Shown in pieces: positions 28,172-57,862 of a stretch of DNA of 64,000 nucleotides. The position numbers and the translations under genes are program-made. Numbering within the stretch: the first letter of the stretch is position 1; each line of letters starts with the position of its first letter. Origin of the DNA: a virus; the IMG/VR virus record IMGVR_UViG_3300029922_000017, positions 32,001 through 96,000 of that record; one strand, given 5' to 3'. A model generated the notes under the pieces. That model searched no databases and was not told where the DNA came from. It worked only from the letters and a program-made list of their open reading frames with translations.

Positions 28172-28362
28172 ATGTTGGCTAAAGAATAAACTATTCTAGT
28201 TACTTTGCAAGGAAATAAATAAAAAAATACAAACTATTTACGATATCGTTAAAACATTGGAAAGTAAGTATAACATTCGTATTACTGGTTGGCTCGGTGA
28301 AAATAGGCAATAAAAAATCTCCTAAACCTTTCGGAATAGGAGACTTGGAAATTTACCGGAGA

Positions 28363-28665
28363 TTAGGACTTGGCAAATTCAACCTTGTCAAACCCGTTGT
28401 AGTTACGGAACTTCTTCTGGAACAAGGCATTCGGGGCGATGGGCTGGTTCGGCAGCAATCCTTCATTGCCAGCCGCAATCACGAAGGTTGACTTGAACTG
28501 GATTTTTTCGGACTTGATGGCGTTGATAATGTTTTCAACGGTGGCAGTCTTGTTCTTGCCAGCCACGATTCCGGCTTGCTTGGCCACGTTACGCAATTCG
28601 GCTTGCGTCATAGTGCGGAGGGAGATGAAAGCGATGGCAGTGGAGTTGTTATTGATTTTGGTCAT
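28363..28665 (-). CDS. Rho-N/SAP-like small protein; paralog of 33342-33653
   Basis: MTQAELRNVAKQAGI..GKNK; shared GLLPNQP....LFQKKFRNYN. Confidence 0.7.
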   Translation of the reverse strand: MTKINNNSTAIAFISLRTMTQAELRNVAKQAGIVAGKNKTATVENIINAIKSEKIQFKSTFVIAAGNEGLLPNQPIAPNALFQKKFRNYNGFDKVEFAKS

Positions 28666-30442
28666 ATGTTTTTGTTTTTTGTTGTTAATGTTGACTGACA
28701 AGAAAGAATATATAGATTTTAATTAAAATGTCAAATGATTTCGTCAAATTTAATCCAGATTGTTGTATCGGTCTGGTCGGGTTGGTCGGATAAAGTTTAA
28801 TTTTCATAATTGAAATTATAGGGATTTTCAGATTAATTGCAAGATAATTCGTAAATTATTTTTTGAAGTTTTCAATTGACAATAGTATCTATAATATTCG
28901 AGTCTCTCTCGGTGAAAGTGACCCAGTAAAAATAAAACTCCCGCTGCCATTTCTGACAACGGGAGACAACATTGCATAAGCATGGTCAACCGACCTTTGT
29001 TTTTTGATAGCCTGTTCCCGTGACAATCCTCGACGTTTCCAGTTTGGTTTTCTTGCCATGGGAATAGTATATCTATTTGAAATGGAATGTCAACCCCAAA
29101 ATTATTCCAAAATCCACTGTGCCATTTCCTTGCCATTCTCAAACACAAAAATTCGGTGGCGAGGATAATTGTGGGACACATACTCCAACGCCGTCTTAAC
29201 CGATAAGAAAGACGATGTATAGTAACATAATTTAGTCGTGTTTTCCAAATTTTGGTTTGCGTTTATAGACTTTTTTTGATTCGAGTCTCTTTGTTACGGG
29301 ATTAAGCAAACCCCAAAATTTCCTTATCTTGATTGGCATTGGTTGTTTCATATATTGATATAAATATATCAATTTCCCCGGAAATGTCAAATCTTATTTA
29401 TTACCAATCCAAGGGGTAACGTGGTAAAGCGTCAACCACAATCCACCAATGACATAACCGATATGGTTAGAATTTCCATTACCATCATCAATATACATTT
29501 TAGAGACGTGTTGCCGACCAATTACAGAACAGAGAGACTTACGGGGATATTTACCAAGATTAAGATACCGCTTACCGTATTGGTCAACTGCAATGATTTG
29601 TGTTGTCATATTTAAGAGTATATCTATTTTAATAGAAATGTCAATGAGAAATTGGATTAAATTCTTCGGACACACAAAATGATTCATCTCCGTTTCTGGC
29701 ATAACCAAAATCATCCAACTCTAATTCAGGGAAAATTGTTCTGAAATAATTGATTGCATCCTTGATATAGAGGCAAGTATGTTCTTCCAAGACTTTATTG
29801 CCACTCTGCCAATTACCAATTGGATACAATTTAAGGAGTAGAAATTTCTTCATATGTTGATAAAGAGTATGGAGATTTTTATCTAAATGTCAAATAGAAT
29901 TACGGTTTTCCTGATACTCCTTATAGCGAGCAACGGCAATTTCAACGTCATCCCTATGAATTTCCATTGAATGATAATCCTTGCTATTGCCTTTAATTCG
30001 CAATCCTTCACCAAGCATGGGATATTCATCCTTCCAATTCTGACAAAAGTAACGGCTGGCATATTGACATTGTTGCCCCCATCTGTTTGCGAGCAACATC
30101 ACCAAAATCTACAAAATCATTCATATGAAAGAATATACCTATTTATATTTTAATTGCAAGGATTATTTCAAACTATTTTCTATTCTCGAATGACGAATAG
30201 TAACTCGAATATTATAGATACTATTTCAAAAAACGAAGTCTCTTCCTCACCTTCCGCATTTAGTATACTAAATTCAATTAGAAATAGCAACAACAAATCT
30301 CACTTATTTTACACTCGACTTTATATTTATATTCATAGCGTAGAAAACTATTAACAATTTGCAATTCCCTAATAAGTTCTTCAAATAAGAATTCTACGCT
30401 TATCTTATTAGGGAATTTGCTTTGCAAAAGCGTAGAAAACTT

Positions 30443-30931
30443 ATGTCATATAAAAATAAAGAAGATGCTAAAGCATTTCACAGAAGATATTATTTAGCCC
30501 ATAGAGAAGAAGCTTTACTGAAAAGTAAAGCGTGGAGAACTAACAATCCAGAATTAGCCGCAAAGCAAAAAAGAGAACATCATATTAAAAATCGTGAAGT
30601 ATTACTGGCAAAAGCTGCTATTTACAGAAAAAACAATAGAGAAACTTTATTGGAAAAGAGCAGATTAAGAAGACAGAAAAAACTTGACAATTTAGGATTT
30701 TCTGGTATAGAACACTGTGAAATTTGTGGCCGTAATAAATCGGAATTTAAGAAAGGATTAGCAGTTGACCATTGCCATGAGACCGGAAAAATACGGGGAT
30801 TATTATGTTATTTATGTAATACTAATCTATGAAGATATAGTGATAATATCAAATTATTAGAGAAGTCAATTAACTATCTTAAAAAGCATAATACTCCACA
30901 AGAAACTAATCCAGTGGAGTATTATATTTGA
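30443..30931 (+). pseudogene. Endonuclease VII-type HNH with premature TGA
   Basis: CEICG...LAVDHCHETGKIRGLLCYLCNTNL*RYSDNIKLLEKSINYL; TGA 30830-30832 replaces the conserved Gly. Confidence 0.8.
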
Positions 30932-30934
30932 GAT

Positions 30935-31471
30935 TTACCGTTTAACCACAATTAGTCCCCTCGCCCGCAATTTTTGAATGTTGTTAAGCGTAACTGTGCG
31001 GACAACTGGCTTAAACTCGTTAAGGGCAGAACTAGCGTAGAAATAAGGCTTTAGGGCATCATAATCAATCCGCTTTCCAGTTTCATCAAAATATCCCGTT
31101 TCTTCCGTTTTCTTGGACTTGGAAGGATAATAAAACAGATAAAACTTTCCATCATCTTTGGTTTTATTAACCCGAATTGGGGTCATTTTTCCGTCGGGCA
31201 TATAAGGAGCGTGCCAAGAATCCGCCGGAATGTATTCAACTTCACTTGCGGCAACGCCAAGCAATGCTGCTGTCTTTTTTTCTACGGCACGCTTGTAATC
31301 TATATTCAACCATCCTTTAACTATGGCCCGTTTAATAACGCCTTTGAAAGGACAAGTCTTTTTCAATGTCGGCTCGGTAATTGTTTCGGCTGAAAAGAAT
31401 TGACTATTGGTTCCGATACCAGTGAGAAAATCCACCATTGAAGGAACGGACATTTTAAGAGTTGTTTTCAT
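30935..31471 (-). CDS. Hypothetical early protein
   Basis: Long ORF with own promoter. Confidence 0.75.
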   Translation of the reverse strand: MKTTLKMSVPSMVDFLTGIGTNSQFFSAETITEPTLKKTCPFKGVIKRAIVKGWLNIDYKRAVEKKTAALLGVAASEVEYIPADSWHAPYMPDGKMTPIRVNKTKDDGKFYLFYYPSKSKKTEETGYFDETGKRIDYDALKPYFYASSALNEFKPVVRTVTLNNIQKLRARGLIVVKR

Positions 31472-32494
31472 ATGTTGTTTTTTGTTAATGTTAATTGTTA
31501 CTGACAAAGGAGAGTATAGAGATTTTTATCTTAAAGTCAAAAAGAAAATGGATTTATTTTAATTTATCCATATTTTGCCATTTATAGACAGTTTCACAAA
31601 ATTCATAATTAAAATCCCGCATATAGCAAATGCCCTGAAAAAATCCAATATGGTTACTCAAACCCCATGCCAGACTTTTCGGTGAATCTGCTAATGCAAT
31701 GGCAGACTTTTGGCAACCCGAATCAATGTAAGCAATCAATTCTTCAAGAGTGCAAGTTTTGTAATTCATATGTTGATAGAAGTATATCTATTTTTATACT
31801 AAAGTCAATTACGATCTATGGAAAAATTAATTCCATTTTTATTCCATCTTGATTTATGCCAGTCATTATGAACAATTTCAAGACATAACTCGAATGTGAA
31901 AATGTTAATGGTAGTTATTACATTGTAATAATCCCAGTTACAATGAAAGCCAAACCATTCATATTCATACCGATTGCAAACTAATGCCCACGGCCATTTT
32001 GGATTGTGAAATAATGTTTTCATATGTTTCTAAAGTATATCTATTTTAATTCAAATGTCAAATAAATTTCAAATTATTTACTTTAATGATATTATAGTAA
32101 CTCGAATGTGATATTTACTTGTCGGTGAAAATAACAATAAAATTGCCGATACCTTTTTCAAGATACCGGCAACCAACATATGACCACCACCGGAATAAAC
32201 AAAAGGGAATTTAGGTAAATCAATCGTGTGATTATTATACAAATTGCCGGTGAATAGTCAACGAATTTCGTCAGGAAATACAAAAATAGCAGTGCCAGCG
32301 TGTAATTCTTTACAATCTTCCAAAAGATTTACTGCGAGATTTCCGCTCTGACAATAATCTACAAAGGTGCCAACTCCCTTATGAGCAGGATTGTTGTCCA
32401 ACTCAAATCGAATGACATCACCTTTAACGTAATTAGTTTTCATATTGGTATTATATTTAAACTCGGTGAGAAGTCAAGAAATTAAATTTTGTTC

Positions 32495-33653: not shown

Positions 33654-34328
33654 AGTTTTGTTTTTTGTTTTGTTTTAGTTGTTACTTACAAGAAAGAGTA
33701 TATCTATTTTTAATTGAATGTCAAATCTTTATTTATATTCCCAGACAACTTCCTGATACTGCTTGCCGTCTTGGGATTGTTTGATAATGTGGAGATTAGC
33801 CTTGTTCAATTGAGAAAATTCAATGGCATCTTCCAATCCTTGATGGTGGACTGGAAAATCAGTAGTCCCAAATTCAGTGGTGACGGCGTAATTGATATTC
33901 ATATGATTATTATACTTATTGGCTTGCAAATGTCAATTAAATTTCACTGCAACATGAAAATCCATTAATGTAAATGGACAATTCTTCAAGTAGAGTTTTT
34001 CGGGGACAGCTATCAATTGACACCATGATTGACACAGTGTTATGAATTTTGTCATAGGTAATGGCATCATTCGAGAATAGATAGAACCGGAAATATGACC
34101 CCATACCCTTTTTAAGAGCAGCAAATTCAACGTCAGTCAATTCAATATACCAAGAATGTTTTTTCATATTTTTCATATAAGAGAGTATATCTATTTTTAT
34201 ACAAATGTCAATGATTTATTTTTGCCGGATTGTTATCAAGTAACTCGAACAATATAACCAGTCAACCAAGTATTAAAAAACCTCACTTATCTTTGCTATC
34301 AGATAAGTGAGATTGTTATTGACTTTCG

Positions 34329-35387
34329 TTAAATTGCCGCCAGCAACTTGCGACCCCGTTCCTCAATTGCCGGAAGTGCATCACGGTCGGTGGTCAACAG
34401 ATTGTAAAATTCCGACTTGCTATCGGCATTGTTGCCAAATTCCGATGAAGCAAACCGGCGACCAAACGGAGTCTTGGCAGTTGCCGAGCCGTGAGTCAGC
34501 AATTGAGTGTAGGCATTGAGCAAATCAAATTCAGTCTGCCCACGATTGGCAATCCCGTTAGTGTGCAAGTGAACCAATTCCTTCACGGTGTTTTCACCAC
34601 GAGTGGACATTTTCAACTTGTCGCCAGCCTCAATTTCAGGCGTAATGAAACCAGCGAAAATTTCCTTGGCACGATTTTCGTTGCATTCATTGGCAGCAAG
34701 GCCATCCATCGCCGCCTTAAACACCGCAGCCATGCCAACAGCCTTTTCCACTTCGCCCTTGGACGCTTCCAAGCGGTCAGAAAAATTCTTGGTTGCCCGT
34801 TCGTGAAACAGAATTTTACCCGATGCACGAGAGAGAGATATCGTGTTCCAGCAAACCGGCAAGATGCTGGAGAGTTCGCATTGCGGCGACACAGACCTGT
34901 CCAATCCACCGGAAAAATTCAACTGGAAATTAGACTGGCGACCATCGCCAACCGTCATTGATTTCAGTTCGGAAAGAGTGACGCCGATAAACCAGAACGA
35001 GCGATTCCAGAGCATACCGATACTGGAAACATCGTAATTGGTTCCGGCCAATTCACCAGCAACCCATGCCCACGCTTCACGAGGCGTAAAGAGAATGTAA
35101 GTTCCCCGCTTGTCCTTTTCCTTGGCTTCACATCCGGCTTCCGTTTCGTCAACAATCGTCTCACCACAGAAAGGGGGAGCGACGGGCAGCATATCATCCA
35201 TGGACACCGGCACATGGAATTTACGGTTGCCAAACACCACTTCCTTGCCGCCATAGAAAAACAGCGGCATGGCTTTGATTTCAGGAAAATCTTCCAGCTT
35301 GGGCTTCCCAATCTTGGTCAGCTTGTGCCATGCCTGTGTTTCGGCAATTTGAAAATCACGTTTCGGGTTATAGATGCCATGTGACAT
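34329..35387 (-). CDS. DUF932-family protein
   Basis: MSHG...AWHKL N-terminus; VCWNTISL; G.TEFDLLNAYTQ. Confidence 0.85.
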   Translation of the reverse strand: MSHGIYNPKRDFQIAETQAWHKLTKIGKPKLEDFPEIKAMPLFFYGGKEVVFGNRKFHVPVSMDDMLPVAPPFCGETIVDETEAGCEAKEKDKRGTYILFTPREAWAWVAGELAGTNYDVSSIGMLWNRSFWFIGVTLSELKSMTVGDGRQSNFQLNFSGGLDRSVSPQCELSSILPVCWNTISLSRASGKILFHERATKNFSDRLEASKGEVEKAVGMAAVFKAAMDGLAANECNENRAKEIFAGFITPEIEAGDKLKMSTRGENTVKELVHLHTNGIANRGQTEFDLLNAYTQLLTHGSATAKTPFGRRFASSEFGNNADSKSEFYNLLTTDRDALPAIEERGRKLLAAI

Positions 35388-35902: not shown

Positions 35903-37688
35903 AAAAGTATTATATAGATTGTTTATTGATTGTCAATGAACATTTACAAAAATATCAGAATGTTCACCGTCATTCCAAGGGTCGTTATCAACCTTAAAAT
36001 TCAACTCTGTTTTAATAGTGTAATAGGTCGACCTCGTAATTTGAACTGGGTTGCCATTGATAACAATCACCGGAACAAGTTTCCCGTCGTGGCGCAACCG
36101 AAGTTTCTTTTCGCCCTTGCGATGCTGCCGAGTGGTTGAAACGGTAACATTAACTCGGTCTTTCACATTGGGATAATACTTGATAAAGATGCTATTACAT
36201 AAGGTTATACCTTCCCTGGAATACCAGGAACTTCCGTAGTGGTTGGATACCCGTTTCAATTTAAATGTTTTTGTCATATGCAAACATTATAGAGATTATA
36301 TTTCCAAAGTCAACGGGAAATTTATTTTCTTTTTCAGTTGCTATTTATAGTGTAGAATGTATATTGTATGGCATATGAAAATTTCACCAACTACTCAACT
36401 TGAATTGATGAAGATGCGTCGTCGGGTAAATATTTGGACGATACTTATGATTGTTTTTTGGTTGACTTTTTGAATTGGATAGGTATAATAATATCAATAT
36501 GAAAAATAAACAATACACTCTCGGCAACGTCACCTACGGATATTCCCTTCAATCAAAGAAGTGGGAATTCAAGATTAATGATTTTACGTTTTTAACAGCC
36601 TTGAATGGTGGTGGTAAGGTCGGTGAAACCGTGGCAAGACTTATTGAGGCTGGATATGTTCGACTTCAAAAGAAAGGCGAGGTTGGAATTGATGGATTGG
36701 CAAGGGCAAATATCAACTTGGCGATTGCTCGACACAATGCGAAGCAACTTGTCGGCAGAGATTAATAAAATATTCTTAACTATGATTTAATTTCATTGCA
36801 TTTATATTTTTATCAACCCACTGAACATTCCCTTCAACATACCCCTTTAATGGGTCTATTCTATCTAATGAAACATTATATCGTTTATATCAATGGAATT
36901 GAGTGTGATGAATTGATTAAAGCATCCAATCACAATGCCGCCGAAAAGAAAGCGGTGAATTGATATGAAAAAATATATTCAATGGTTTGATGATAAGACT
37001 AAGGCAATTCCAGTCACTTCCGAGCCTTTAGTCGGTGAGTTTGGAGATGAATTAATGGATTTCCAAGATTGGGAGCGATTAGGATTTAGAGTTATGGATT
37101 GGATGGATAAATATCCAAACGGAAAAATCATTTATATCTGGCTATAAATAATCTGACTTGCGGTGAAATTGATATGACTAAACAAGAAAATATTAAAATT
37201 GCTGGCGAAGTAATTAATTTGCTCCGAAAGAATGGAATTGTGATTGAAAGTCCATACGATGTTGAAAATTGGGCTGAGGAATGGTTAACCAATCATTCCA
37301 ATCTTTTTGAGACTAAAATGTTCAAAGAAGAATAAATTTGACTTGTTGGTGAAATTCTGCTATCTTATTGGTATTATGAATGAAATATATCAATGGCAGT
37401 TTAAAAATGGCAGCAAGACACCTTTGGAATTTACCACCTTTCCATTTGCGTTTCGTGCAATGTATAACCTAGTCCGGCAAGGAATTGATGCGGGGAAACC
37501 TGTTGATACTTCTGGATTTGTGATTGTAGGACCTAAAAATCCAAGGGGTGAGCGTGTGAGATATGGTTATTTTGCCGCTCTTGAGCTTGCTCGTTCCGGT
37601 GGCCTTTTGAACCAAGAGGGTTACATAAATGGTAAGGAATTCAAGAAAAAGTTTTGACAATCAATAAACAATCAGTATAATCTTTTAT

Positions 37689-38156
37689 ATGAATAAAATA
37701 CAAATCCCCGAAGGCTGGTATCAACTCAATCCCGAAGAACGGGTTCGTGAAGGCGATAAATTTTTCCGCCCCTCATTTGGTGAATGGGAGCTATCTGGAA
37801 ATTATCCCAGCGGACAGCAATCCACTGAATATGTTTATATTCGCAATGGTTCACCCCCTACCCCGTTCAAGATTGGCGATAAGGTTGAAGTTTCTGGCAA
37901 AACCGGAGTAATTCATGGTGAACGCACATATCTGAAAGCTGGTTTTGGATACAGTATCAAGTTTGATGAAGCGATTGAAAATAAAGACTTGGGGCATCTT
38001 TATGTTATTTCTATTCGGGAAGACCTTATCAAACATCAAGAAAAGCCAATTATGGCGGCTGGTTATGAAGTCAAATTTGAATCTGGTCAAATCAAGGTTG
38101 GTTGCCAGACCATTTCAAATGAAGTCGTGAAACAAATTGCGGCCAAGTTGAAATAA
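37689..38156 (+). CDS. VGCQ-family paralog 1
   Basis: C-terminal IKVGCQTI shared with 47296, 48040 and 53016. Confidence 0.75.
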   Translation: MNKIQIPEGWYQLNPEERVREGDKFFRPSFGEWELSGNYPSGQQSTEYVYIRNGSPPTPFKIGDKVEVSGKTGVIHGERTYLKAGFGYSIKFDEAIENKDLGHLYVISIREDLIKHQEKPIMAAGYEVKFESGQIKVGCQTISNEVVKQIAAKLK

Positions 38157-38301
38157 CATTTGACTTTTGGTTTTTAGTTGATATATTAGTTTCAGTTGAT
38201 AGCAATATCACAATATCACAATTCGCCAATTGCCGCAGATGCATCTGCTAATTTAAGAGAAAATACCAACGTTGTTGGAGAATGGTAAAGCGAAGATTTT
38301 C

Positions 38302-38376
38302 GGGAGTGTAGCTCAGAGAAAGAGCACCTAACGTGGAGTTAGGAGGTCGCAGGTTCAAGTCCTGCCACTCCCACCA
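38302..38376 (+). tRNA. tRNA-Pro(TGG)-like with G33
   Basis: GGGAGTG/CACTCCC-ACCA; CCTAA-CGTGGAG-TTAGG; T-loop TTCAAGT. Confidence 0.8.
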
Positions 38377-38516
38377 GTTTTTAGAATTCGGATTAACAGT
38401 CAAACCGTTCGGCTACGCAAATAGACCGATAAACAATACTGGTATCATTTTGCGATGATATGTCCAATTAACTAGATTTCGATAGTGGAAGTGGCTCTAT
38501 CGGATGAATATTTTAC

Positions 38517-38672
38517 GGATAGGTCGATGTGCGAGGTGAGAGTCCTCACGAAAGATGTAATGGAAGGTTTGCATGAGTAATGTCAGTGGCATTAATTAAC
38601 TTGACACGAAAGTAATAATTGAGTAGTTATATTCAGTAGAAAACATGGGTTAGAGTCCCGTGCTATCCACCA
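38517..38672 (+). ncRNA. 156-nt RNA with tRNA-like ends and two T-loop-like hairpins
   Basis: GGATAG/CTATCC-ACCA; ATGGG-TTAGAGT-CCCGT; internal GAGG-TGAGAGT-CCTC. Confidence 0.65.
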
Positions 38673-38675
38673 ATT

Positions 38676-38899
38676 TGATTGAAGGATGTTGTGCTAAAAC
38701 CACATCATTTAAAGAGTAGGATTAGACCGGATTAATTGGAATGAAATCCCATATCAAGCCAATTAACATAGTCGGTCATAATGTGATAGTAGTAGTGACA
38801 TGACATGGATGAGATGGGCTACTACCGTGTCTTTAATGAATTAACAGTTGAGGCGAAGTATCACAAATCCTTTTGGCTTAGATATGCACACTTCAATCA
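38676..38899 (+). ncRNA. Unnamed structured RNA (~224 nt)
   Basis: Closing stem TGATTGAAG/CTTCAATCA; GACCGG..TTAATTGG/CCAATTAA..TCGGTC; GTAGTAG/CTACTAC; followed by U-tract. Confidence 0.6.
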
Positions 38900-41129
38900 T
38901 TTTTTCTTTTCTATGAGAGTAATTATAATACTACAGTTACTTACTGATAAAAATAATCATTGACAATTAAATAAAAATATCTATAATCTCTTTTATGAAT
39001 TACTATTACATCAAATTTACCAGATGGAACGAAACATTGGGAGATGAAACTGTTTATGTTCTATTGGAAACTAAAATGGATTATCCCAATTGTGACTTGG
39101 TAAAATTTGAAGCTGCTCAATGGAAAGCATTCTGGAAGCAATATCCTCAATGGGAATGTAAATATAATTCCAAACATCTTCCACAAACTAATCTTGAAAA
39201 ACTTGGAAATTATTGGTCAACTCCCTCGGCTGGAAGGATACATCGAGTCAAATGGACTACTAAAATAGAAGAATTAAAATTGTGTTGACATTTAGATATA
39301 AATCTATATTCTTATTGATATATGAGACTCTACTTTTCAAGACAAGACAAAGATAAAAAGCAAGTGTGGCAGCTTGGAAATTTGCATGTTATTTCCAACA
39401 ATCATATGATTTTCTATGCCGACAAACCATTTACCTGCATATTAAATACAGGAGAATTTAGCGGGGATGTCTTGGAATTGAATATTGATAAATGGTTTAT
39501 GGATTTTAATCAACTTACAATTCAAGGATATGTAAGAGTAGGCGGAAAAAATCAAGATAATAATAGGTTTGGAGTGGATGCTTATTCATTTTATCAAACA
39601 ATACCGGCGGAATAACTTGACAAATAGATTAAAATCTATATCTTAATACTATGAAATACATCGAACATTTCTATATTCCCGGTTTGAGTGGATATGATAT
39701 TTCAATCAAACATGGGTCATATCAAGAAGCAGCATTGAATGGTATTTTCTATTTGAAATTCCTCAATATGGTGGATACCCTATGTTTGATGATGTATATA
39801 ACACTCATCAAATTGAAGATATGATTAATTCCGTATTTACATGGACATGAGAGAATACATTGAAGATGCCATCATTATTCTCCGGCTTATAAACGGAAAA
39901 CAATGGGCAAGTGAATATGTTCGATTGAGAATGGAATTTCACCGGCTGCATGGTCATGGATTGATCCAATCCACTTGGCACGGAGTTGATTTCTTCGATA
40001 ACGTATTGAAAGAATTGAACGGTGAAGATGTCGGTGAACCCAAAGGTGAATTTAGAAACAATTTTAAAAAACTCATTGACTTTGGTAAACAATAAAGTAT
40101 AATAATTTATATGAATGAAAAATCTTTTAGTCACGTTTGCCGACATGGAACTGTATTTACTGCCACTCGCTGTGATTTTCGGGGTGGGGTGGTAGTCAGT
40201 CACGTTCCCAAGAAAGAATTGCTGGCTATGGACATGGCTGAAATGATTGGGTATCATGCCGGTGTCATTCATCCCTTACTCAATGGGTTTCGAGGGTATG
40301 ACTGTATTTCATTTGACTTTCGCAAGTGACTGGGTATAATAGCTTATATGAAAATCAAACTTGAACTAGATACTTCCGAGTTTCTATCCAACAAAATATG
40401 GTTTAAATGGATTGGAATATGTATCTTAATTGGTGTTTTTTCTCGCCTTATCACAATCGGTGAAATTCAATATTGGCTGGTGGCATTCTCTCTTATCATC
40501 TTGGCCGATTTGAAACTTAATCCATCTAAAGCATGAATAAAGATATTCCGCCCAATTCAGATACATTAGAGAAAATTCCATTTGAAAAAACAATTCCCGA
40601 TGTATCTTGGTATCGCCATAATACATGGGAAAAAGGGCATTACAAGCGATTTCGTCATTATATGACCATGAGCCAAAATATTGACGGGTTTGAATTCTTT
40701 AATACTATCGGTGAAAACTAATATGACCAAAGAAGAACGTAAGAAATATCTCATGTCCAAGCACATTGATATGAATGACCCTATCGGTGAATTGCCAACT
40801 TCAATTGTTGACATTGAAGATGAATTGTCGGTGAATGATGGCTATCAGGAACATCAAAAAACAGCCACAAAGAAATTGACAAGTGACGAATAATTGATAT
40901 ACTTTTTATATGAAACATAACATTGAATTGGACGGAAAGAAATACGTATTGGATGCCGAACGTGCTATTGCCCTTGGGGTTCTTGCCACGCAAACATATC
41001 GTTATAGTGATGTGAAGCAAGGAGATGTCTTTACTATTGGTGAAGTTAAGGATTTGAAGAAGGAAAGAAGTTGACATCTGATAATAAAACGGTATAATGA
41101 GTTTTAGTTAATTGCATATTTGGTGGAAT

Positions 41130-41215
41130 GGCGATGTGGAGAAATTTGGTAAACTCAGCATTCTTAAAAAGTGCCGGCTAACGCCTTGTGGATTCGACTT
41201 CCACCATCGCCACCA
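41130..41215 (+). tRNA. tRNA-Leu(TAA)
   Basis: GCATT-CTTAAAA-AGTGC; variable arm GGC-TAAC-GCC; ACCA; downstream terminator. Confidence 0.92.
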
Positions 41216-42120: not shown

Positions 42121-42355
42121 TTATGAAATCAATTCCAAAAGTTGGTGAATGTATTAAATACGTTGAATCGTTGGGATATAAGTTTGATTCATACATTAAA
42201 GGTAGTGGATATTTCTTTCGTATAATCCGACCCGAAACTCGTCCTCCCCATAATTGGGAAATGACGTGGACACTTAATGAAATGCGAAATGCGGTGAAAA
42301 ATGGTTGTTAATTTTATTGACTCTTCGGTGAAAATGTAGTATATTTATTCTTGTT

Positions 42356-42425: not shown

Positions 42426-42433
42426 ATTTTGAT

Positions 42434-45119: not shown

Positions 45120-45500
45120 ACAAGTAAATTACATTAAAACGCTACTCTTAAATGGGTAGCGTTTTTTATTTGACATTTGTATTAATATAGATATACTCTT
45201 ACCCATGAATATTGACCTATCTAAAATAACAGATATTGAATTTGACGGGATTGACCATAAAGATTATCCTGAATATTGTAACGCATATATTAATAAAGCG
45301 TCAATTGAGATTACCCTACAAGAATATAATCTCTGTCAGGGTAGCAATCAAGTTTCCTATGATGGAAGATATTACAGAAACTTGACTGATACCGAATTGG
45401 AATATATTCAGGATAATCATGGAGATTGGGTTTATGAAAAACTTTGGAATTTTATTCATTAACATTTGACATTAGAATAAAAATAGATATACTCTCTTAT

Positions 45501-46301
45501 ATGAAACTATTAAATGTTGGCACCGACTCTAAAACAATCAAAGGTGAAGTGTTTGGTTATTACACTGCTATCTTATATCTTGCACCGGCCAATGAAAGCG
45601 GTGAAATTAATACTTGCCCCAATGCTTCAAATGGTTGTAAATCCGCTTGTCTCTACAATTCAGGATTGGCTGGGGTATTTCCTACCATTAAAGAAGCAAG
45701 AATTAATAAAACTAAATTCTTTGTTGAAAATCGCCAAGGATTTATGGAAACTTTGATCGGTGATATTAATAAATTAATTGCTATGTCAAAGCGTGACCAG
45801 ATGACTGGTGTTGTGAGACTTAATGGCACGTCGGACCTTGCTTGGGAAAGTATTAAGATTAATGGTAAAAATATCATGGAGCATTTTCCTGATATTACCT
45901 TCTATGATTATACAAAGTCTATTTCTCGTATGATGCGTTTTCTTAAAGGTCAATTTCCTAAAAATTATTATTTGACTTTTAGCCGGAGTGAAGATAATTA
46001 TGAAAGTTGCCGGAAAGTTTTGCGGAATGGTGGCAACGTCGCCGCTGTATTTCTCAAAAATCTGCCGGAAAAATTCATGGGTAAAACGGTTATTGTTGGT
46101 GATGATAGCGATTTGCGCTTTAATGATTTGAAGAATGTTATTGTCGGCTTAACGGAAAAGGGAAGTAAAGCCAAAAAAGATAAATCGGGATTTGTTATTA
46201 AGGTGGCATTGAATAAATTGAAAGTTGCTGGTTTTGTGGATTATTCTACGCCCCTGAAATTCAGCATGAAAAAGAACGGAATTCAATTGACAGTTGCCTA
46301 A
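45501..46301 (+). CDS. Gp88-like (radical-SAM-related) phage protein
   Basis: LYLAPA...NTCP.AS.GC..ACL; VRLNGTSDL; FYDYTK; NYYLTFSRSE; GDDSDLRF. Confidence 0.85.
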   Translation: MKLLNVGTDSKTIKGEVFGYYTAILYLAPANESGEINTCPNASNGCKSACLYNSGLAGVFPTIKEARINKTKFFVENRQGFMETLIGDINKLIAMSKRDQMTGVVRLNGTSDLAWESIKINGKNIMEHFPDITFYDYTKSISRMMRFLKGQFPKNYYLTFSRSEDNYESCRKVLRNGGNVAAVFLKNLPEKFMGKTVIVGDDSDLRFNDLKNVIVGLTEKGSKAKKDKSGFVIKVALNKLKVAGFVDYSTPLKFSMKKNGIQLTVA

Positions 46302-47295
46302 CAATCAATATACTAATTTTATGATTAAAACCAACGAAAAATATTACCGGTATCTTTACAAGCTACAAAATAGCGGTGAAACCAATATGTTTGGAGCCGG
46401 ACAATTTCTCCGTGATACATTTGGAATTGACCGTAAAGAGGCAACAGAAATATTGACTTACTGGATGCAAAATTACGAAGAAATTGCCAAAGAATTACAC
46501 ATTGACATTTAACAAACTATCAATATATTAATCATATGAAAATTAAATTGCCGGAAGGCCATGAATGGCGGGAAGCACAATCGGCAAGTTCAAATGAAAC
46601 CTTATTCATTTGTAAAGTGTGCCAAGCATCATTTACCCATGATATGATTGATAACTCAACTCAATTTGAAGATGGTATTAATGATGACTGCGGTGAAAAT
46701 GAAGAGCAAGAGTGCGTATGAAATATAAATCTCTTAAATCATTTACTCTAGCGGTGAACAAGATGGCTCGTCAAGATTGGAGAGTTCATCACGATTTTCC
46801 GGAAAGAATGATGGAATATTATTGGGAACAGAATTATACTCCTCGTCAAGTATTAACTCAATTGGCTACGGATGCCGAAATGGAAAATGCAGCAGAAGCG
46901 AGAATGTCTTAATTTATGTATAACTACACACTTGAAAATGGGAAGTTTCCAGACTTGACCGAAAAACAATTTTTATACTTGTTTAATATTGGCGGATTGA
47001 TATACTCGGTTGGCTATGGACATTGTAAATTTGCCGATGGAGTTTGCTATACTGATATTGAGCTGGCACTGAAAGGAATTCCCAATGACTAAAAATTATA
47101 TTATTGTCGGTGAAATGACTGGTCATGAAACTGCCCTATACTGGGGTAACAATTGGGAATGGATTGAAGATTTTAGTAAAGCTCAGAAATGGACAGATGA
47201 AGTTCTCCGTTTGGAATTGCCAATTGGTGCTACTGGCTGCATGGAATTAACTGAATTCGATTGACAAACAATAAAAAATAAATATACTCTTAAAT

Positions 47296-47688
47296 ATGAA
47301 CAATAATTACGACAATATCTATATCGAAGTTAGCAACAATACAGAATGTTTGGCGGCGATGCTCTTGCTATCAAAACTTTCAGGTAAAGAAATTAATGAG
47401 ACCTCACTTGACGCTGCGATTAATAATTGGTCATTCTATAATTTTGTAACCATTACTGGTGGAAATGTGGTTAGGAAAGTAGATTCTTATTCTGCCAAGA
47501 AGATTGTTTCTTTCAAAGAAATTGGAAATCTTGATGTGCTCATAAACGCAAAGGTAGAAGTTAAATTAAATTCTACTTATACCGCTATCGTAACCAACGA
47601 TACTGTTGAAGTTGGTTGTCAGAAGTTTCCTATCTCCATCATTGACGAATTGGTGAAAGCCCGTAAAACGGTGCTTGACAACAAGTAA
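47296..47688 (+). CDS. VGCQ-family paralog 2
   Basis: VKLNSTYTAIV...VEVGCQKFP. Confidence 0.75.
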   Translation: MNNNYDNIYIEVSNNTECLAAMLLLSKLSGKEINETSLDAAINNWSFYNFVTITGGNVVRKVDSYSAKKIVSFKEIGNLDVLINAKVEVKLNSTYTAIVTNDTVEVGCQKFPISIIDELVKARKTVLDNK

Positions 47689-47733
47689 AATTTAAGTATA
47701 ATTCAAACATAACAAAAAACAAAAAACAAAAAT

Positions 47734-48033
47734 ATGGAAAACATTATCTATCAACGCACTCGTGACCGTAAGAATAACCCAAATGGGGTTGTGATTGCTA
47801 TGAAACTTAAAAATGGCAAGGGAGTTAAATTTGGATGGAGTAAGGCCAATTTTAAGGCTGGCGACAAGTTTAACCTTCAAGAAGGTTTGCGACTGGCTAC
47901 TCAACGTGCCATTAAGGGTAGCACCAAGGAAATTCCACACTCTATTCAGAATGATTATACCGATATGGTAAATAGGTCCGTAAGATACTTTTTTAAGGGG
48001 ACATCGGTGAAAGTTGTTCCTGTCAAATCTTAA
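47734..48033 (+). CDS. Small phage protein with G.S....D.F...G..LA..RA motif
   Basis: VKFGWSKANFKAGDKFNLQEGLRLATQRA. Confidence 0.6.
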   Translation: MENIIYQRTRDRKNNPNGVVIAMKLKNGKGVKFGWSKANFKAGDKFNLQEGLRLATQRAIKGSTKEIPHSIQNDYTDMVNRSVRYFFKGTSVKVVPVKS

Positions 48034-48039
48034 ATTAAT

Positions 48040-48399
48040 ATGAACTCAAATAAATATGACATGGTCATCGGAACGTCAAATGTTGCCGAAAAATTGGCAC
48101 TTGGAGCCTTGCTCAAGTCGCTCGGTGAACCTACCCATTCAAAGTCGTTTGACCCCGCTACTACCGATGCTAGATATCTCAGTGTAAAGTTTATCACTGG
48201 AGAATGGGTGGGAAGTAGTTCGCAGTCTACCATTACATTTTCCGACTTCATTAAAGCCGAATTTAGAAGTAAAAAAACAACTGTAAAGTTGAATTCGGAA
48301 TATTCTGCGGAATATATTGATGGTAGTGATTTTGTGACGGTTGGATGTCAGAAGTTTCCGGTGTCGGTGATTAAAGAACTGGCCTCAAAACTTTCTTGA
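48040..48399 (+). CDS. VGCQ-family paralog 3
   Basis: VKLNSEYSAEY...VTVGCQKFP. Confidence 0.75.
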   Translation: MNSNKYDMVIGTSNVAEKLALGALLKSLGEPTHSKSFDPATTDARYLSVKFITGEWVGSSSQSTITFSDFIKAEFRSKKTTVKLNSEYSAEYIDGSDFVTVGCQKFPVSVIKELASKLS

Positions 48400-48840
48400 A
48401 AAAGTATTTGACAATTATTGGAAATCTGATATATTGTCTCTGTTGGTCGGTGAAAAGGCAAAAGTAGTTAAACAGGATAAGTAAGATTGCAAGCCCTTCA
48501 ATCTTTACCAATAATTAAAATTTGTGTAACAAAAACGGCGTGACTGTCGCTTACAAAAAACAAATATATCCACTAGTCAGGATATACAACGGGACATTTG
48601 ATATTAGTCTCGTCGGAACGGAAGTAATTAGCCTAATCCGAATTATAAAAGAACGGTTTTTATGAGCAAGTTTTTTCCATAGGAAATAAAACTGCTTTTT
48701 AAAGAAAAGTAGTGTAGTTTATGATAGAAAAACTCCTATGGAGTTCTACATTATAATAGGTTTACTATTTCCTACTGAAAATAAAAAAGCGGTGTTTTAC
48801 GGTATTTTTTGTCCGAGTAATTCAAAAATACCATTAATTT

Positions 48841-49872: not shown

Positions 49873-50316
49873 ATGAATTCTGATATTATAATCTATTCGG
49901 ATGGTTCTTGTTCACCCAACCCTGGTATTGGAGCATGGTGTTGTATTATTAAATTTAATGGTAATGAATTAATACAGACTGGAACCGAATTAAAATCTAC
50001 TAATAATCGAATGGAAATAATGGGTATCTATCAATGTTTAAAACAAATTGTGAAGTATGGATATAAGAATATTAAAATAGTAAGTGATAGTAAATATCTT
50101 GGATATGGATTACGATTTAACAGTATCCGATTAAATAAAGCAAAAACTCCTAATTTAGATATATGGGTTCCCCTTCATAAAATAAAGAAAGATAATAATC
50201 TAAAAATTAGATGTGAATGGATTAAAGGTCATATGGGACATATTGAGAATGAAAGATGTGATAAAATAGCTACTCAAGTAAGAAATGAATTTAAGCGGCA
50301 ACAGTCTTTATTATAG
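49873..50316 (+). CDS. rnhA: Ribonuclease HI
   Basis: IYSDGSCSPNPG.G, TNNRME, SDSKY, WIKGH.G...NERCD. Confidence 0.95.
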   Translation: MNSDIIIYSDGSCSPNPGIGAWCCIIKFNGNELIQTGTELKSTNNRMEIMGIYQCLKQIVKYGYKNIKIVSDSKYLGYGLRFNSIRLNKAKTPNLDIWVPLHKIKKDNNLKIRCEWIKGHMGHIENERCDKIATQVRNEFKRQQSLL

Positions 50317-51303: not shown

Positions 51304-51822
51304 TCAATTATTATAATTGGGAATCGTATGGGAAGCAATTGGCTTGAATAAGGAAGTAGAAAAGAATGCAACTAATTTTACTTGTGAATGTGCGGCATCT
51401 TTACGGAACTTCATTTCCCAACCAGTTCCTTGTTGGTCATTGGGATTAGCATCAGCTAAAGCCAATAGTTCTTTAGCCTTAGTCTTAATTTCCGCAGCAT
51501 TGAATATATTTAGCTTACCATGTCTATCAACGACAATATATAATTGAGCCTTGGATTGTAAGTCTCTACCTTCAATATCTCTATCCCAATCCTTGATTAT
51601 CTCATAGATTATGTCAGACCCCGATTCCCGTTGTTTCAATTGAAAGGATAACTTACCACCGGCTTTAGGAAGAATGAAGCCATCAATTTTATCCTTCATG
51701 TCATTTTGAGTAGTGGGTTCTTGTATATTATACCCTTTACTCCGAAGAAAATCAATAATTTCTAATTCTCGACTCTTACCAAGAGTAACTCTAGTATTAT
51801 AATCAGTTACAGTGTTTAACAT
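51304..51822 (-). CDS. PD-(D/E)XK nuclease-fold protein
   Basis: GKSRE...DMKDKIDGF...SFQLK; TATTTATA promoter. Confidence 0.55.
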   Translation of the reverse strand: MLNTVTDYNTRVTLGKSRELEIIDFLRSKGYNIQEPTTQNDMKDKIDGFILPKAGGKLSFQLKQRESGSDIIYEIIKDWDRDIEGRDLQSKAQLYIVVDRHGKLNIFNAAEIKTKAKELLALADANPNDQQGTGWEMKFRKDAAHSQVKLVAFFSTSLFKPIASHTIPNYNN

Positions 51823-53015: not shown

Positions 53016-53486
53016 TCAAATACTATCGTGAGCCTTTACAATTTCCTTGATAACATCATAAGGAAACGTCTGACAACCAACTTTGACATCATCCTTGGAA
53101 ACAATAGCGGCATAATTGCCATTCAACTTGACTTCCTTGGTCTTCGGCCTCGGCTTAATATAATCTTCACGAAAAGTGAATAAATCAAATTCATTCCGAA
53201 ATCCGGCCATGAAGTTCGAAACTATGAATGATTTTTCAAATTTAATCAAATATCCATAGCCAGTATTAAGAAAAATTCGGGGACTATGAATTGTTCCATT
53301 ATAACCATCAACCACAACTTCATCCCCAATTTTATAGGCTGGATTGACCTCAGTTGCAACTTTGCGAATATATTGGTATCCATTGGCTTGGTGCCAATTA
53401 TTACTCACCATCCACTTTCCATCATAATACTTATCCCCTTCGAGGACGGTTTCATTTCGTTCGAGTTCTCTCCAACCGGTAGGTAT
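53016..53486 (-). CDS. VGCQ-family paralog 4; original start apparently deleted
   Basis: Frame extends to IPTGWRELERNETVLEGDKYY, matching IPEGWYQLNPEERVREGDKF of 37689, but has no ATG there. Confidence 0.65.
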   Translation of the reverse strand: MPTGWRELERNETVLEGDKYYDGKWMVSNNWHQANGYQYIRKVATEVNPAYKIGDEVVVDGYNGTIHSPRIFLNTGYGYLIKFEKSFIVSNFMAGFRNEFDLFTFREDYIKPRPKTKEVKLNGNYAAIVSKDDVKVGCQTFPYDVIKEIVKAHDSI

Positions 53487-55062
53487 GTTTTGTTAAATGT
53501 CAAATTAATTTTTTGGCTGGTTTTCCCAACAATCCATAACGTGCTCAATTTCAGTGAAAGTTAATGATTGATAATCACATAGTGTCAAAACTGGTTCGCC
53601 ACAACTTTCCACCACACCACCAACTTGGCGGTTGGCGGAATAAATAATCATACCATCCTTAACTTTTTCACAGTAGATATTCATAAATTGTTAAACTCTG
53701 GAATATTCATACAAATTCAAATGCTGGACAAATTCATCATGGGTTCGCAAGGGAGCATTGTAGCAACTAGACGGATTGCCGCTAACACCCCCAAAAATAT
53801 ATTTATGCTCCATGTGAACTGGAATTCTAATAACTGTGCAGACATCTCCAGAGTCTTTATATTGGAACATTTGACCAGCCTCGACGGAAGTAATTAATGG
53901 ATTGCCATATTTGGATTGACACTGGTATTCAACTTTATATTCGGTCATATGAGAATTATATAGATTTAAGCGGCAATGTCAATAATCAAAGTGAATTAAA
54001 ACCTTATCATGTTCTTCCCGAATACCCATAGTATAAAACCAACATTCCAATGCACTATTACTATGGGGAAATTCAACATCGCCAACTTCATAATCAACAT
54101 ATGTCCCATTATGAGGATGTAAATCCATATTCCTACAATATTCATTTATATCATCCCACAATTCTGCTGGCATCACCGTATGTTCAATAATCGGATATGT
54201 CTTTAATTTATTCATAAATTATACAGAAATAAATTCAACTTCAAGCGGATACCCATCCCTACCGGCGAACTTTCTCCGCATCTCTGGAGTGTCATTATAC
54301 TGTGTAGCTTTGGCGGCATCCATTGTAATAAACCCATGGCAACCATTCCGTATGTGATATATGCCGGTAGCCTTACAACGAACAATCATTTTCTTCATAT
54401 TCAAATCATTCTATCCATTATAGATTAAAAGTCAAATACAAAATAATTCAAATAAACTATTGACTAAAATCTAAAATCTGGTATTCTATTGGTGTGAGGC
54501 GACCCACAAGGCTCCGGAAGGGAGTTCCGCCTGCACTAATCACTTTAACGTTATAGTAATAAGAGTAACTATAATGCTATAATTACATAATATCGTTAAA
54601 GAATTTCTATAAAATAATACAAATTATAGGCAGTAAGGTCGGTGAAAATAAGTATTATTATATACATTATGGTCGGTGAAAACAGGTATAAAAATAACGA
54701 TAATAATAGAATGTAATTATAATAACATTGAATAGCTGTATTTTATAATAACGATAATATTTTTATATATTTTATACTTGGTAGGAGCGGTGAAAATAGC
54801 CTTATAATATTAGAAAAGGAAATAGATATATAGGCCAAATGAATGATATTTCTTAATATAAATTACTGTTATCGGTGAATTTGGCGTCAATTTATAGGTA
54901 ATTTTTATTTTTATATATTATTTTTATGTTATCACTATGAACACCACATATATAGATAATATTCTCTATTAAGAATAATATAAATAAGCTAATAATAAAC
55001 CTTATTTTTATAATCTGACCATCCATTTTCCAACAGATTTTTCCCCTTAATATTTAATAAGA

Positions 55063-55464
55063 TTAAGGCTCAAACTTACCCGTTGCTACTAATAGGGCAT
55101 CGGCTAATTGGGCAGGAGTTTGTTTTAATGCTTTAAACATATTATCAATCTCATCATCCTCCCGACTAAACAGAGACTTCATTATTTTTCTACGAATAGG
55201 TCTATCTTGTTTTTGAATGATGGGGAGGATAGCATCATATGAGGAATAATAACTAGGAAGGAAAGGAATATATCTAATATTTCCATTGGGTAGTTTAGTA
55301 GAAAGTTTGGAGCCGACACTTAACCAGTAGGCTCTTTGGATTTCATCTCTGGGTTTAGCTAGCTTTATATTTTCTCCGGTAGAATTTTCCCACACTTCAT
55401 AACCATCAAATAGGGCTAGAGTATATATTTTCTGTTCTAAGAGGGCATCTGATATTTTAGTCAT
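55063..55464 (-). CDS. Phage ABA-sandwich-like hypothetical protein
   Basis: PSYYSSYDAILPIIQK...TPAQLADALLVA. Confidence 0.5.
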   Translation of the reverse strand: MTKISDALLEQKIYTLALFDGYEVWENSTGENIKLAKPRDEIQRAYWLSVGSKLSTKLPNGNIRYIPFLPSYYSSYDAILPIIQKQDRPIRRKIMKSLFSREDDEIDNMFKALKQTPAQLADALLVATGKFEP

Positions 55465-57862
55465 AAAATATTTATTATCTTATTTATATTCTGATAAGAG
55501 TGTCTGTAATACTTTAGGTATTCCTCGAAGGAAGGCTTTATCTAAAAGTATTAGATACCTTTTATATTCTTTATTGGTAAGGTTGCCGCCGTTTCTTTTG
55601 TCCATTAGGACTTCATATTCTTTTTCTTCTTCGGGATTCATAATTATAAGATAAATTTTATTAAGATACATCAATCAATGTAATATGCCATCCGTAGTAA
55701 GACTATTCCAATTACTACAAATATGATTATTAATGATATATCCATAATATTTATTAGCTTATTTCTATTCCTTCTAATTGGTCTTTCTTACAGACACTAC
55801 ATACGGTATCATCTGCTGCCACGTGTCCTTTACAGAATCTACAAGGGTAACATAAGGGGAGTCCCATTAATGAGAATTCTTCATCTTTACAGATATAACA
55901 ATTTGCATCATAAACATCGGAGCCGCTTCTTAGTTCAGGATGTTCTAATCCTTGGGTGAGCATCCAATAACAAGGGTCATTTTTTTGCAAAGGTTTACTC
56001 ATATAAATTAGTTTATTTTTGTATAATAAAAGCTATACCGGCTCCTAGTGCTATTAGTATCACTATCCATCCAATATAATTTTCGGCTGATGTCATGTTC
56101 TTTACTATGCCGCCATTAATATTCCAATTCGGAACTTTTTAACACCCTAACAAGTTTAATACCATCACACAAAACAGTTCCAATCGGAGTTGTTCCAATC
56201 ACCGGCCAAACACGGTTTCGAATATCAAAAACATATTCATTATTCCAAAAATCCATCACTATTCCAACCGGAGTAATGTGGGTTGGAATTGATTTATAAT
56301 CGCCACATGACACTCCAACAGCTTCGGCTTCGGCAATAACGACATTTCCGCTTTCCAATTCAGGTTCGGAAATATATCGGAGGGCATTCTCTAAACTCGA
56401 AAATGCAAATAACTTTCCAAATTTGGGATAGGTATAGTTTGTGCGGCTATATCGGAGACATGGAATTGAATTTTTTTCAACTCTAATTTCAGTATAGCTT
56501 TTAAGATAAGAATATAGTTTCTTATTGTGCCGAGCGAGTAATTTATATACTTTAGTTGTGTTCATATTTAATTTTTATTCTGTTTAGTTGCCACCACCGA
56601 TGCCAGTCCTAACATTGCCAGTTTTGGTTGATTATAAATCATACCAGCCAAAAAACTAACCCATCCAAGATAAAACCCAATGGTAATCATAATTGAGAAT
56701 ATATCAGATATAGATTGATTGTCAAGCAATAACGGGGGATGCCGGAACAAAATCAACGACTGCCTCACTCGGATATTCACGGTTCCATGCACGTTTCACG
56801 CCTTCAATCGTCAATTTAAACGATTTCCCATCTTTAACCCGTTCACCGACAACCGGAAACTTATGGGAACGAGTATTCAGTCCACGGATAGTAAAGCGTT
56901 CACCATTGACATATGTAATTTCTTTGTTAAGCATATCCGGTTTAAGTCCATAAGATAGGGCATAAACATTAAATTGTGAAGCGTGTGGGCTAGTTTTAAT
57001 GACTGTCCCATCCGGTGCAACTTGTGAAACTGCGCCTTGAAACTTAAACGTGGCAGTGTTAGCATCAAATCTGGCTCCATTATAATTCAATGAAATGCCA
57101 TATTTATCCTCAACGGTTTTCAATGCGATTTTCAAATCAGCCGCAATGAATTTCAGGTTGGTTCTATCGAATGAGTTAATTTTCATATTTGAGAGTATAT
57201 TGATTTTAGATTGATTGTCAATCTTTATTTTCTTCGGGTTCATTTTTGTCGAGAAATGATACACAGTAAATATCGCCACCACTCGACTCGGTCACTGTTT
57301 CTTCACAGTGGGAGCAACTACTATAATATTCCATATTATATTTCTTGGCTAATTTAATTAATTCCTGCTCGAATTTTTTGTTCATGGTTGAGAGTATATT
57401 GATTTTAGATTAAATGTCAAGGGCTATTTACGGTATCGTTAAAATATTAAAATAATGATATTCTGAATAATAAAACATAATAAATACAAATCCTCGGTGA
57501 AAATGCCGCTTTTAAAATAAGTTGATTGTTTTAATACTATAAGGTATTATATTACCAATGGATAATAAACGTGAAATAAGTAGATTATTATTGGAAGCAT
57601 TACAACTTCTGGATAATAGCAGACTCTTGAATAAGAGCGTATCGTTCACCAATAAATTGATAGATGAGTTAAATATCGAGGAGAATATTGATGATATTAA
57701 AATATATCATCAATCAAAGATATTGTGGAGCCGCCTTAAAATAGATTATCAAGAACTGATTAAAATTGAAACGGAGTATGAAGTCATACGATTGAAAGTA
57801 AATAAATTAGGCCGAGAAGTATTGCCTCCCCTAGAGCCATCGGAACCAATGGACTTTGAATT

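Follow-up and report, generated by a model that had tools for sequence, protein, structure and literature searches.

Why is a short DNA word repeated many times on one strand within a limited part of a phage chromosome, irrespective of the direction in which the genes there are transcribed? This question is raised by the 64,000-nucleotide stretch analyzed herein (the window), namely bases 32,001-96,000 of the 138,917-bp viral contig IMGVR_UViG_3300029922_000017, in which the heptamer CGGTGAA is accumulated on the + strand; unless another record is named, all positions below are those of the window. The analyses revealed that CGGTGAA constitutes an orientation code at the DNA level, which occupies one absolute strand of a conserved zone of about 30 kb and holds in a clade of about 350-kb T4-related giant phages, whatever the local transcription direction.

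An exact count gave 34 copies on the + strand and five on the − strand of the window, and all 34 of the former fell within 28,295-57,501, a zone of about 29 kb, with zero on + in 1-28,200 and in 57,600-64,000. The original prediction for this DNA, which had estimated by eye about 34 + copies against about four of the reverse complement between 28.3 and 57.5 kb and had noticed none on + in the first 28 kb, was thus exactly reproduced (34 + and 4 − in the zone; the fifth − copy is at 9179), and its supposition that roughly one copy should occur by chance agreed with the 1.36-1.4 per strand expected in the zone under a first-order model. For both strands of the whole window, 100 dinucleotide shuffles gave an expectation of 5.49 ± 2.46 with a maximum of 12. 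Along the whole contig, 37 + and 11 − copies were counted, 34 of the 37 + copies being inside the zone, and CGGTGAA was the rank-1 7-mer of the window, its one-base extensions TCGGTGAA and CGGTGAAA being the top 8-mers. The four − strand copies in the zone, as against 1.36 expected, are at background level and outside the signal. The + copies were also clustered beyond random scatter, as judged from the gaps shorter than 150 nt (11 vs 5.0 expected for random scatter, P 0.003) and from a gap coefficient of variation of 1.55 (P 0.002).

The zone comprises three blocks, of which block C (36.3-48.6 kb; 24 + and 2 − copies) is transcribed on the + strand, and blocks B (28.2-36.3 kb; 5 + and 1 −) and D (48.6-57.6 kb; 5 + and 1 −) on the − strand. 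Blocks B and D together thus hold 10 + and 2 − copies, as compared with about 0.8 expected per strand, so that the polarity does persist across the gene-orientation switch at 36.3 kb, as had been predicted, and is independent of the coding strand instead of merely following it. Copies were indeed located both inside genes (e.g., 45599 in a GP88-family gene) and between them (e.g., 44103). As a coding control, 34 hand-called block C genes (9,132 nt) were subjected to synonymous shuffling that keeps the proteins and the codon usage of the block; the 19 coding copies observed compared with 1.94 ± 1.38 expected (maximum 7 in 2000 shuffles), and codon-order shuffling gave an expectation of 1.26. 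The enrichment therefore did not vanish after codon/dipeptide correction, and a codon/dipeptide artefact was rejected. Twelve of the coding copies are read as xxC-GGT-GAA and seven as xCG-GTG-AAx, both of which avoid an in-frame TGA. Gly-Glu pairs are spelt GGTGAA in 18 of 24 cases, and 12 of these 18 are preceded by a C-ending codon (background 16.5%).

In order to place the signal in a wider context, relatives carrying the zone were compared. CheckV estimated the contig to be 39% complete, and the genome of our phage, namely that represented by the window, would thus be about 350 kb. Via an rIIA anchor (52% identical to our rIIA) we found a relative of similar size, G004 (IMGVR_UViG_3300031884_000002; 353,772 bp, CheckV 100% complete). 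Its whole genome contains 28 + and 10 − copies, of which 19 + and 1 − lie in the zone at 19,220-49,804 and 9 + and 9 − in the other approximately 323 kb; over 20 kb of this zone, 16 + and 0 − copies were observed vs 1.64 ± 1.39 expected. The two zones are syntenic and collinear with the same boundary genes, and that of G004 likewise covers − blocks plus a + block, while the + strand coding regions of G004 at 170-180 and 240-270 kb contain 0 copies. A second, smaller group (5 + and 0 −) occurs outside the main zone of G004 at 113,695-129,171, where many + open reading frames (ORFs) are found.

A more distant relative, G012 (IMGVR_UViG_3300019487_000029; 65,620 bp, 19% complete, 43.5% G+C), was recovered via a zone-protein alignment with 18 database homologues (56-98% identity, on contigs of up to 60 kb), its anchor protein being 39% identical. 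Across its strands TCGGTGA was counted 36 vs 5 times, and 31 of the 36 fell within the initial 22 kb, the contig evidently beginning inside the zone; over 20.5 kb, 26 vs 1 copies were found, with 2.33 ± 1.47 expected. When G012 was flipped to put the word on the + strand, its left flank was collinear with ours, and the distance from the left-boundary gene to the neighboring copy was 124 nt in our phage, 185 nt in G004 and 252 nt in G012. In addition, the homologue of our − gene 51304-51822 is inverted in G012 and contains two sense-strand copies there, and none in ours. The same core word on the same relative strand is thus shared by three phages of 30.5%, 34% and 43.5% G+C, whose shared proteins are 39-58% identical. 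Since the signal survives codon/dipeptide correction, does not follow the coding strand, and is kept in two relatives despite a gene inversion, the original prediction that it is a DNA-level signal was supported.

To examine whether individual sites are conserved, nine orthologous gene pairs of our phage and G004 were aligned at the codon level. Six of our copies and six of G004 mapped to 11 aligned coding positions, and only one of the 11 was common (41888, corresponding to G004 36075). At the other positions, identical or similar residues are retained and the word is spelt in one phage only, as exemplified by Thr-Val-Lys, encoded by ACG GTG AAA in G004 and ACG GTT AAG in ours. Individual copies thus arise and vanish through synonymous codon changes, and the low number of common positions indicates that selection acts on density and direction in the zone, not on particular sites. 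The exceptions are intergenic: both zone-boundary copies are positionally conserved, the last one being kept in G004 at 49798, upstream of the ortholog at 49880-50134, and so is the AT-rich spacer in block D, which in its syntenic counterpart in G004 contains one copy at 46518. In four of 24 peat runs that were compared, our phage was near-clonal: over 20 kb, 5 positions varied, and no copy was affected.

Among the relatives examined, the zone is absent beyond the clade of these three phages. CGGTGAA was counted 5/4 on the two strands of G001, which has only 2 zone genes in common with ours and whose lineage was the only one recovered in a metagenome scan; 7/1, scattered, in Flavobacterium phage immuto; 33/33 in Microcystis phage Mel-JY01; 45/14 in LR756508, where a control word gave 46/17; and 73 + and 63 − in the 1.13 Mb of 80 loci anchored on the GP88-family gene. 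Two further fragments, G005 (6/8) and G006 (5/6), probably end before the zone, judging from synteny. A megablast search of block C against phage records gave no match. Candidate analogues in other phages were rejected, since the skewed words TGGCACC and GACTTGA of G001 are tandem coding repeats, and TTCCCCG and AAACCGA of other GP88-carrying phages are fixed promoter parts.

All these data describe a polar word array with unusually strong comparative support, the kinds of such words known in phages being Chi and nick words. The extreme counts (34 vs 4 copies with 1.4 expected), the natural replicates in three deeply diverged giant phages, the sharp syntenic boundaries and the positional turnover show that the signal is clearly under selection. 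Direction-carrying words such as Chi, KOPS and nick sites reveal machines tracking along the chromosome, and few of them are known in phages. In the literature searches made, we found no description of such a one-strand word zone for phages, and the literal word led to primers only. The copies and landmarks of the zone, on which the following considerations draw, are as follows.

28295-57501, + strand: word zone with 34 CGGTGAA copies, K-CGGTGAA-W
27689-28171, − strand: left-boundary gene, 160 aa, with no Pfam or PHROG match for its product; its orthologs in G004 and G012 adjoin the first zone copy on the left
28295-32254, + strand: five copies (28295, 28910, 31680, 32123, 32248) in block B, whose genes and early-type promoters have − orientation
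28910 and 31680, + strand: copies antisense within promoter-led − genes
32248, + strand: copy in the spacer of a − strand promoter
32123, + strand: copy in a − strand short ORF or untranslated region
28295, + strand: copy just past a − strand terminator-like hairpin
36300-48600, + strand: block C, small-gene cassettes; 24 + and 2 − copies, 19 coding
36621-37167, + strand: three copies (36621, 36953, 37161) at the start of block C
40020-42642, + strand: densest cluster, 12 copies in 2.6 kb (40020, 40032, 40458, 40709, 40785, 40829, 41469, 41888, 42035, 42292, 42326, 42636)
42326, + strand: copy in the spacer of a + strand promoter
44103-45605, + strand: two copies, 44103 intergenic and 45599 inside the GP88-family gene 45501-46301
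46374-48454, + strand: second cluster, 7 copies in 2.1 kb (46374, 46691, 46752, 47108, 48005, 48123, 48448)
48448, + strand: copy beginning 13 nt past the −10 box of a strong + promoter
54640-54879, + strand: four copies in 240 bp (54640, 54674, 54788, 54873) in an AT-rich ORF-free spacer of the − strand block D
57495-57501, + strand: last copy; the + gene 57558-57866 begins 56 nt downstream
57558-57866, + strand: right-boundary gene, 102 aa, without a family match; its ortholog in G004 is 49880-50134
35963-56848, − strand: the four − strand copies of the zone (35963, 39938, 44505, 56842), background level

Since polar words can be parts of promoters, the relation of the copies to the transcription signals was evaluated. 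No Shine-Dalgarno sequence was found at genes of this genome, and most small genes of the zone are preceded by a promoter cassette, TTGACA-N16-TATACT/TATAAT-N6-7-ATG (29 on + and 32 on − in the zone; e.g., 44385-44443, 45450-45508 and 34172-34220), whose position directly against the start codon implies that the mRNAs would be leaderless or near-leaderless. The cassette pattern had 0 matches when searched in viral contigs, and the complement of its −35 region, AATGTCAA, was counted 25 vs 9 times in the window. Judging from this promoter type, the zone genes are probably early, and the supposed confinement of CGGTGAA to the early region stood only in part: the zone does consist of early-type genes, yet the 4-12 kb region of the window, having 18 early-type promoter matches on the − strand, contains 0 + and 1 − copies. 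No preferred distance from a copy to the nearest + promoter was found in our phage or G004, and a canonical + promoter lay within 40 nt upstream of 3 of the 10 − block copies in ours and 1 of 9 in G004 (12% and 14%, respectively, for random positions). A promoter element was thus rejected, given that the word has no fixed distance to the −10/−35 boxes or the start codon and does not follow gene orientation. One-stranded heptamers that are promoter parts are found in other GP88-carrying phages, namely in the locus L057 (whole locus, 15 vs 0) and in L046 (1,000-6,200, 11 vs 0), where the promoter consensus ends at a leaderless ATG (TTAATTAAAACCGAAnTATAAT-N7-ATG and TACACTTTCCCCGyCATG); these resemble ours in being strongly one-stranded and located in early regions, but differ in their invariant flanks, in their fixed distance to both the −10 box and the ATG and in following gene orientation, and they warn that polar words are often mere promoter parts.

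A role in the transcripts was assessed in the same way. A Shine-Dalgarno-like element could account for at most 3-4 copies: in three promoter-less genes the word is 5-7 nt before the ATG (36953, 37161 and 40709), and an ATG follows at 5-7 nt in 4 of the 34 copies vs about 2 expected, as estimated from base composition. A hairpin-loop context was rejected, because the unpaired fraction of the word as + RNA (0.39) did not differ significantly from that of composition-matched controls (0.345, p 0.23); the complementary strand was somewhat less paired (0.597 vs 0.449, p 2e-4).

Alignment of the 34 copies gave an extended form K-CGGTGAA-W (position −1, T in 22 and G in 10; position +8, A in 20 and T in 8), with no conservation beyond these two positions within 45 nt on either side, and G004 has the same extended word (among its 20 copies, 17 have G/T at −1 and 15 have A at +8). 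None of the 21 single-substitution variants was enriched or polarised in the zone, the best being 7 vs 7, which indicates that all seven letters matter. Derivation from a longer repeat or a tandem repeat was rejected, since the flanks are unconserved and 19 copies pass a strict flank-dissimilarity filter; the repeats that do occur in the zone are the early-promoter cassettes. Same-strand copies 9-12 nt apart were observed once in our phage (40020/40032) and as two pairs in G012. Pooling of the short spacings of the three phages gave a best period of 10.4-10.9 nt in a scan of the whole 5-16 nt range, but this phasing of approximately 10.5 nt (Rayleigh p 0.02-0.035; n = 12-24) was not significant after correction for the period scan (0.08-0.10).

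What, then, reads the word? The original prediction had offered a Chi-like site, a KOPS-like cue, a nick site and a site for a protective protein, between which the present data make no choice. Tentatively, we favor the possibility that the copies are programmed single-strand nick sites of a strand-specific endonuclease encoded by the clade. Such an enzyme would cut the + strand copies as in phages T5, tf and phiKMV, so that this strand would carry interruptions within the zone and every 3'-OH end would point rightward; speculatively, strand-displacement synthesis, clamp loading or recombination might then begin at the nicks. According to PMC3517423, 14 of 14 nicks of phage tf lie in an exact 9-mer found on the top strand only, and one-strand nicking at set words occurs in T5 and phiKMV-like phages as well; these words are read by a phage-specific system and have a function that is still enigmatic. 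CGGTGAA resembles them in being an exact, short and asymmetric word, dispersed and flank-free, on one strand and independent of transcription units, with the opposite-strand copies at background. Because the word persists at 30-44% G+C and 39-58% protein identity, its reader is more likely a protein of the phage clade than a host enzyme.

Several observations nevertheless weigh against nicking. The word is found in about 9% of the genome and not genome-wide as in tf, T5 and phiKMV, a confinement for which the accessible text of PMC3517423 offers no precedent; moreover, their nicks have been mapped, whereas in our phage nicks are predicted from the word. Our array is also denser, with up to 12 copies in 2.6 kb, and occurs together with a T4-type terminase. 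Family searches of the zone and boundary proteins, which are mostly orphans, gave no nickase candidate, and such HNH and GIY-YIG genes as occur here resemble those of mobile homing enzymes. Copies 9-12 nt apart would release short oligonucleotides if both were cut, the non-significant phasing of about 10.5 nt fits a one-face duplex binder at least as well, and positional turnover with density kept is also a known behavior of Chi. Finally, the density is highest where the word is on the sense strand, with 24 copies in 12.3 kb vs 10 in 17.1 kb, a difference that we tentatively attribute to codon constraints. What phage nick words do has been an unsolved question for decades, and a nick or loading code, if true, would mark a functional chromosome domain in T4-related giant phages.

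We consider it doubtful that the word is instead Chi-like, i.e., that a host RecBCD/AddAB-type helicase-nuclease moving leftward meets it from the 3' side and turns from degradation to recombination, whereby the zone would be protected, or recombination or cyclisation promoted, as in LLS, MD8 and P1. In PMC12315714, the Chi of these three is described as the most frequent word of its length, co-oriented (20/23; 32 vs 0), regionally clustered and turning over in position, with codon usage giving no explanation, and CGGTGAA, an exact, short and G-rich word, shares its rank among words of its length as well as the co-orientation (34:4 in ours, 19:1 in G004 and 36:5 in G012), the clustering and the turnover. 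The zone of about 30 kb would also be within the reach of Bacteroides AddAB, whose travel averages 14 kb and can extend to 40 kb, as given in PMC2887965. No UvrD-family helicase was found in G004, and this phage would therefore be without an AddAB-like machine of its own.

The two cases differ in other respects, however: the Chi of LLS, MD8 and P1 is the known Chi of a known host and is next to a defined DNA end (PMC12315714), whereas our zone is internal on a circular map and distant from the terminase. The assembly of G004 is in fact circular, although classed as 'linear', its bases 1-175 recurring at 353,598-353,772 (about 175 bp). Since the type of large terminase (TerL) correlates with DNA end type, the T4-type TerL of G004, some 73 kb away from the zone, suggests that packaging is headful and the ends are permuted, so that a fixed entry point would be lacking; the supposition that the word marks first-entering DNA was therefore not supported. 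Neither does a common host Chi readily account for the same core word at 30.5%, 34% and 43.5% G+C with 39-58% protein identity, and it becomes doubtful given that the nearest cultured relatives of the G004 TerL, both about 49% identical, infect Flavobacterium and Microcystis, i.e., different phyla; the hosts of the three phages thus probably differ. [quoted passage not shown] Detection of this gene as two pieces (model positions 62-261 and 3-64), separated by about 1.5 kb, suggests an intron, intein or homing-endonuclease insertion.

The search for hosts gave no excess of the word in two bacterial genomes, which are not credible hosts (34/32 with control 67/55, and 382/416 with control 359/359). 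A ligase scan of bacterial genome contigs gave no match, and the phage ligase clusters with viral, Bdellovibrionota and Bacteroidota ligases, allowing no host decision. Likewise, a transposase scan gave only 30-34% identical relatives: the phage carries at 18,451-19,665 an IS605/TnpB-type transposase gene (PHROG 506, E 5e-121), and its nearest bacterial relatives are found in two metagenome-assembled genomes. If the Chi-like explanation were true, CGGTGAA would be the Chi of the host group, possibly Bacteroidota, and would offer a new means of predicting the hosts of uncultured phages.

Rather improbable in our estimation, the copies could be KOPS-like polar sites at which a DNA-tracking machine of the clade or of the host is loaded or guided. 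This machine, perhaps a translocase, a clamp loader, a helicase or a complex of the condensin type, would read direction along the zone, for instance to start unidirectional replication or to move DNA. In the FtsK-orienting polar sequences (KOPS) and SpoIIIE recognition sequences of bacterial chromosomes, direction and not position is informative, and density and co-orientation are selected over long stretches; CGGTGAA is likewise a short direction-carrying word with absolute polarity, selected for density and co-orientation over a long stretch whose boundaries are sharp and conserved, while its positions turn over (1/11 common). The clustering beyond random scatter (P 0.003 and 0.002) is consistent with such sites, as is a best short-spacing period of 10.4-10.9 nt, the value for one-face duplex binding, and the conservation across differing G+C suits a clade-encoded reader. 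On the other hand, this phasing loses significance upon correction (P 0.08-0.10), family searches of the zone and boundary proteins gave no candidate, and KOPS/SpoIIIE words extend over the whole chromosome in accordance with the replication arms and may be degenerate at some positions, whereas CGGTGAA tolerates no substitution. To our knowledge, there is also no phage example of KOPS-type words.

With comparable reserve, we also consider that the zone might be a phage-encoded, direction-marked domain, on which a clade-specific tracking machine would load at the duplex or nicked word, always in one direction. Unidirectional replication or recombination would then proceed from many dispersed entry points or, alternatively, the rest of the 350-kb genome would be reeled past a fixed point. 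If true, this would be the first KOPS-like orientation code in a virus, independent of host Chi and of packaging ends.

It is unlikely that the copies are static sites for a duplex DNA-binding protein, such as a repressor or a nucleoid-type or protective protein, coating the zone with no tracking. Although the clustering and weak helical phasing would be explained, this gives no reason for a one-strand polarity across 30 kb and a gene inversion, and operators are usually degenerate or symmetric, whereas CGGTGAA is exact and asymmetric. A palindromic element beside several G004 copies may also be counted in its favor: the element (CTTATACTGGTATAAG-like) is just upstream of the copies in the − strand block (20,930-20,956, 26,010-26,061 and 31,225-31,275), has a weaker version at our left-boundary copy (28,270-28,294), and could be an operator or a hairpin.

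Very improbable, lastly, is an RNA-level signal, CGGUGAA on + transcripts (the early mRNAs of block C and small + RNAs elsewhere) being read by an RNA-binding protein or endoribonuclease or acting as a weak ribosome-binding element. In its favor are the 24 of 34 copies on the sense strand of block C and the copy 48448 after its strong promoter, and also the three promoter-less genes and the four-copy cluster downstream of a + promoter-like site at 54460-54487, the last two of which cover few copies, so that we gave this reading low weight; against it stand the block B copies antisense to promoter-led genes or in − promoter/terminator contexts, the lack of enrichment of + promoters upstream of the − block copies in ours or G004 and of the word on the sense strand of the − blocks (2 copies), the control-like pairing and ATG spacing described above, and the copy-free + coding regions of G004.

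Regarding the remaining content of this DNA, the contig encodes rIIA, rIIB, an NAD-dependent ligase, an RNA ligase and homing endonucleases, and 17 tRNA genes are present in the window, whereas the Rfam matches in the zone are two tRNAs only. All 24 public sequencing runs found to carry the phage were peat metagenomes, with no RNA run among them. In the region 54,460-54,560, the + promoter-like site (TTGACT, 16 nt, TG, TATTCT) precedes a self-complementary, G+C-rich segment (54494-54540) within an ORF-free spacer of 660 bp. This region, for which no Rfam match was obtained, may specify a small RNA, and the four-copy cluster begins shortly downstream of it. A 75-nt inverted repeat, 77% complementary (47,557-47,631 and 53,061-53,135), marks the paralogous genes 47296-47688 (+) and 53016-53411 (−), neither of which contains CGGTGAA. 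Finally, the contigs of four of four peat runs connect 33235 with 34954 through 20 different letters, indicating that a form of the phage lacking the segment 33,235-34,954 exists; this segment, which is high in G+C (0.44) and includes the 5' half of a DUF932 gene (34329-35387), is probably a mobile insertion.

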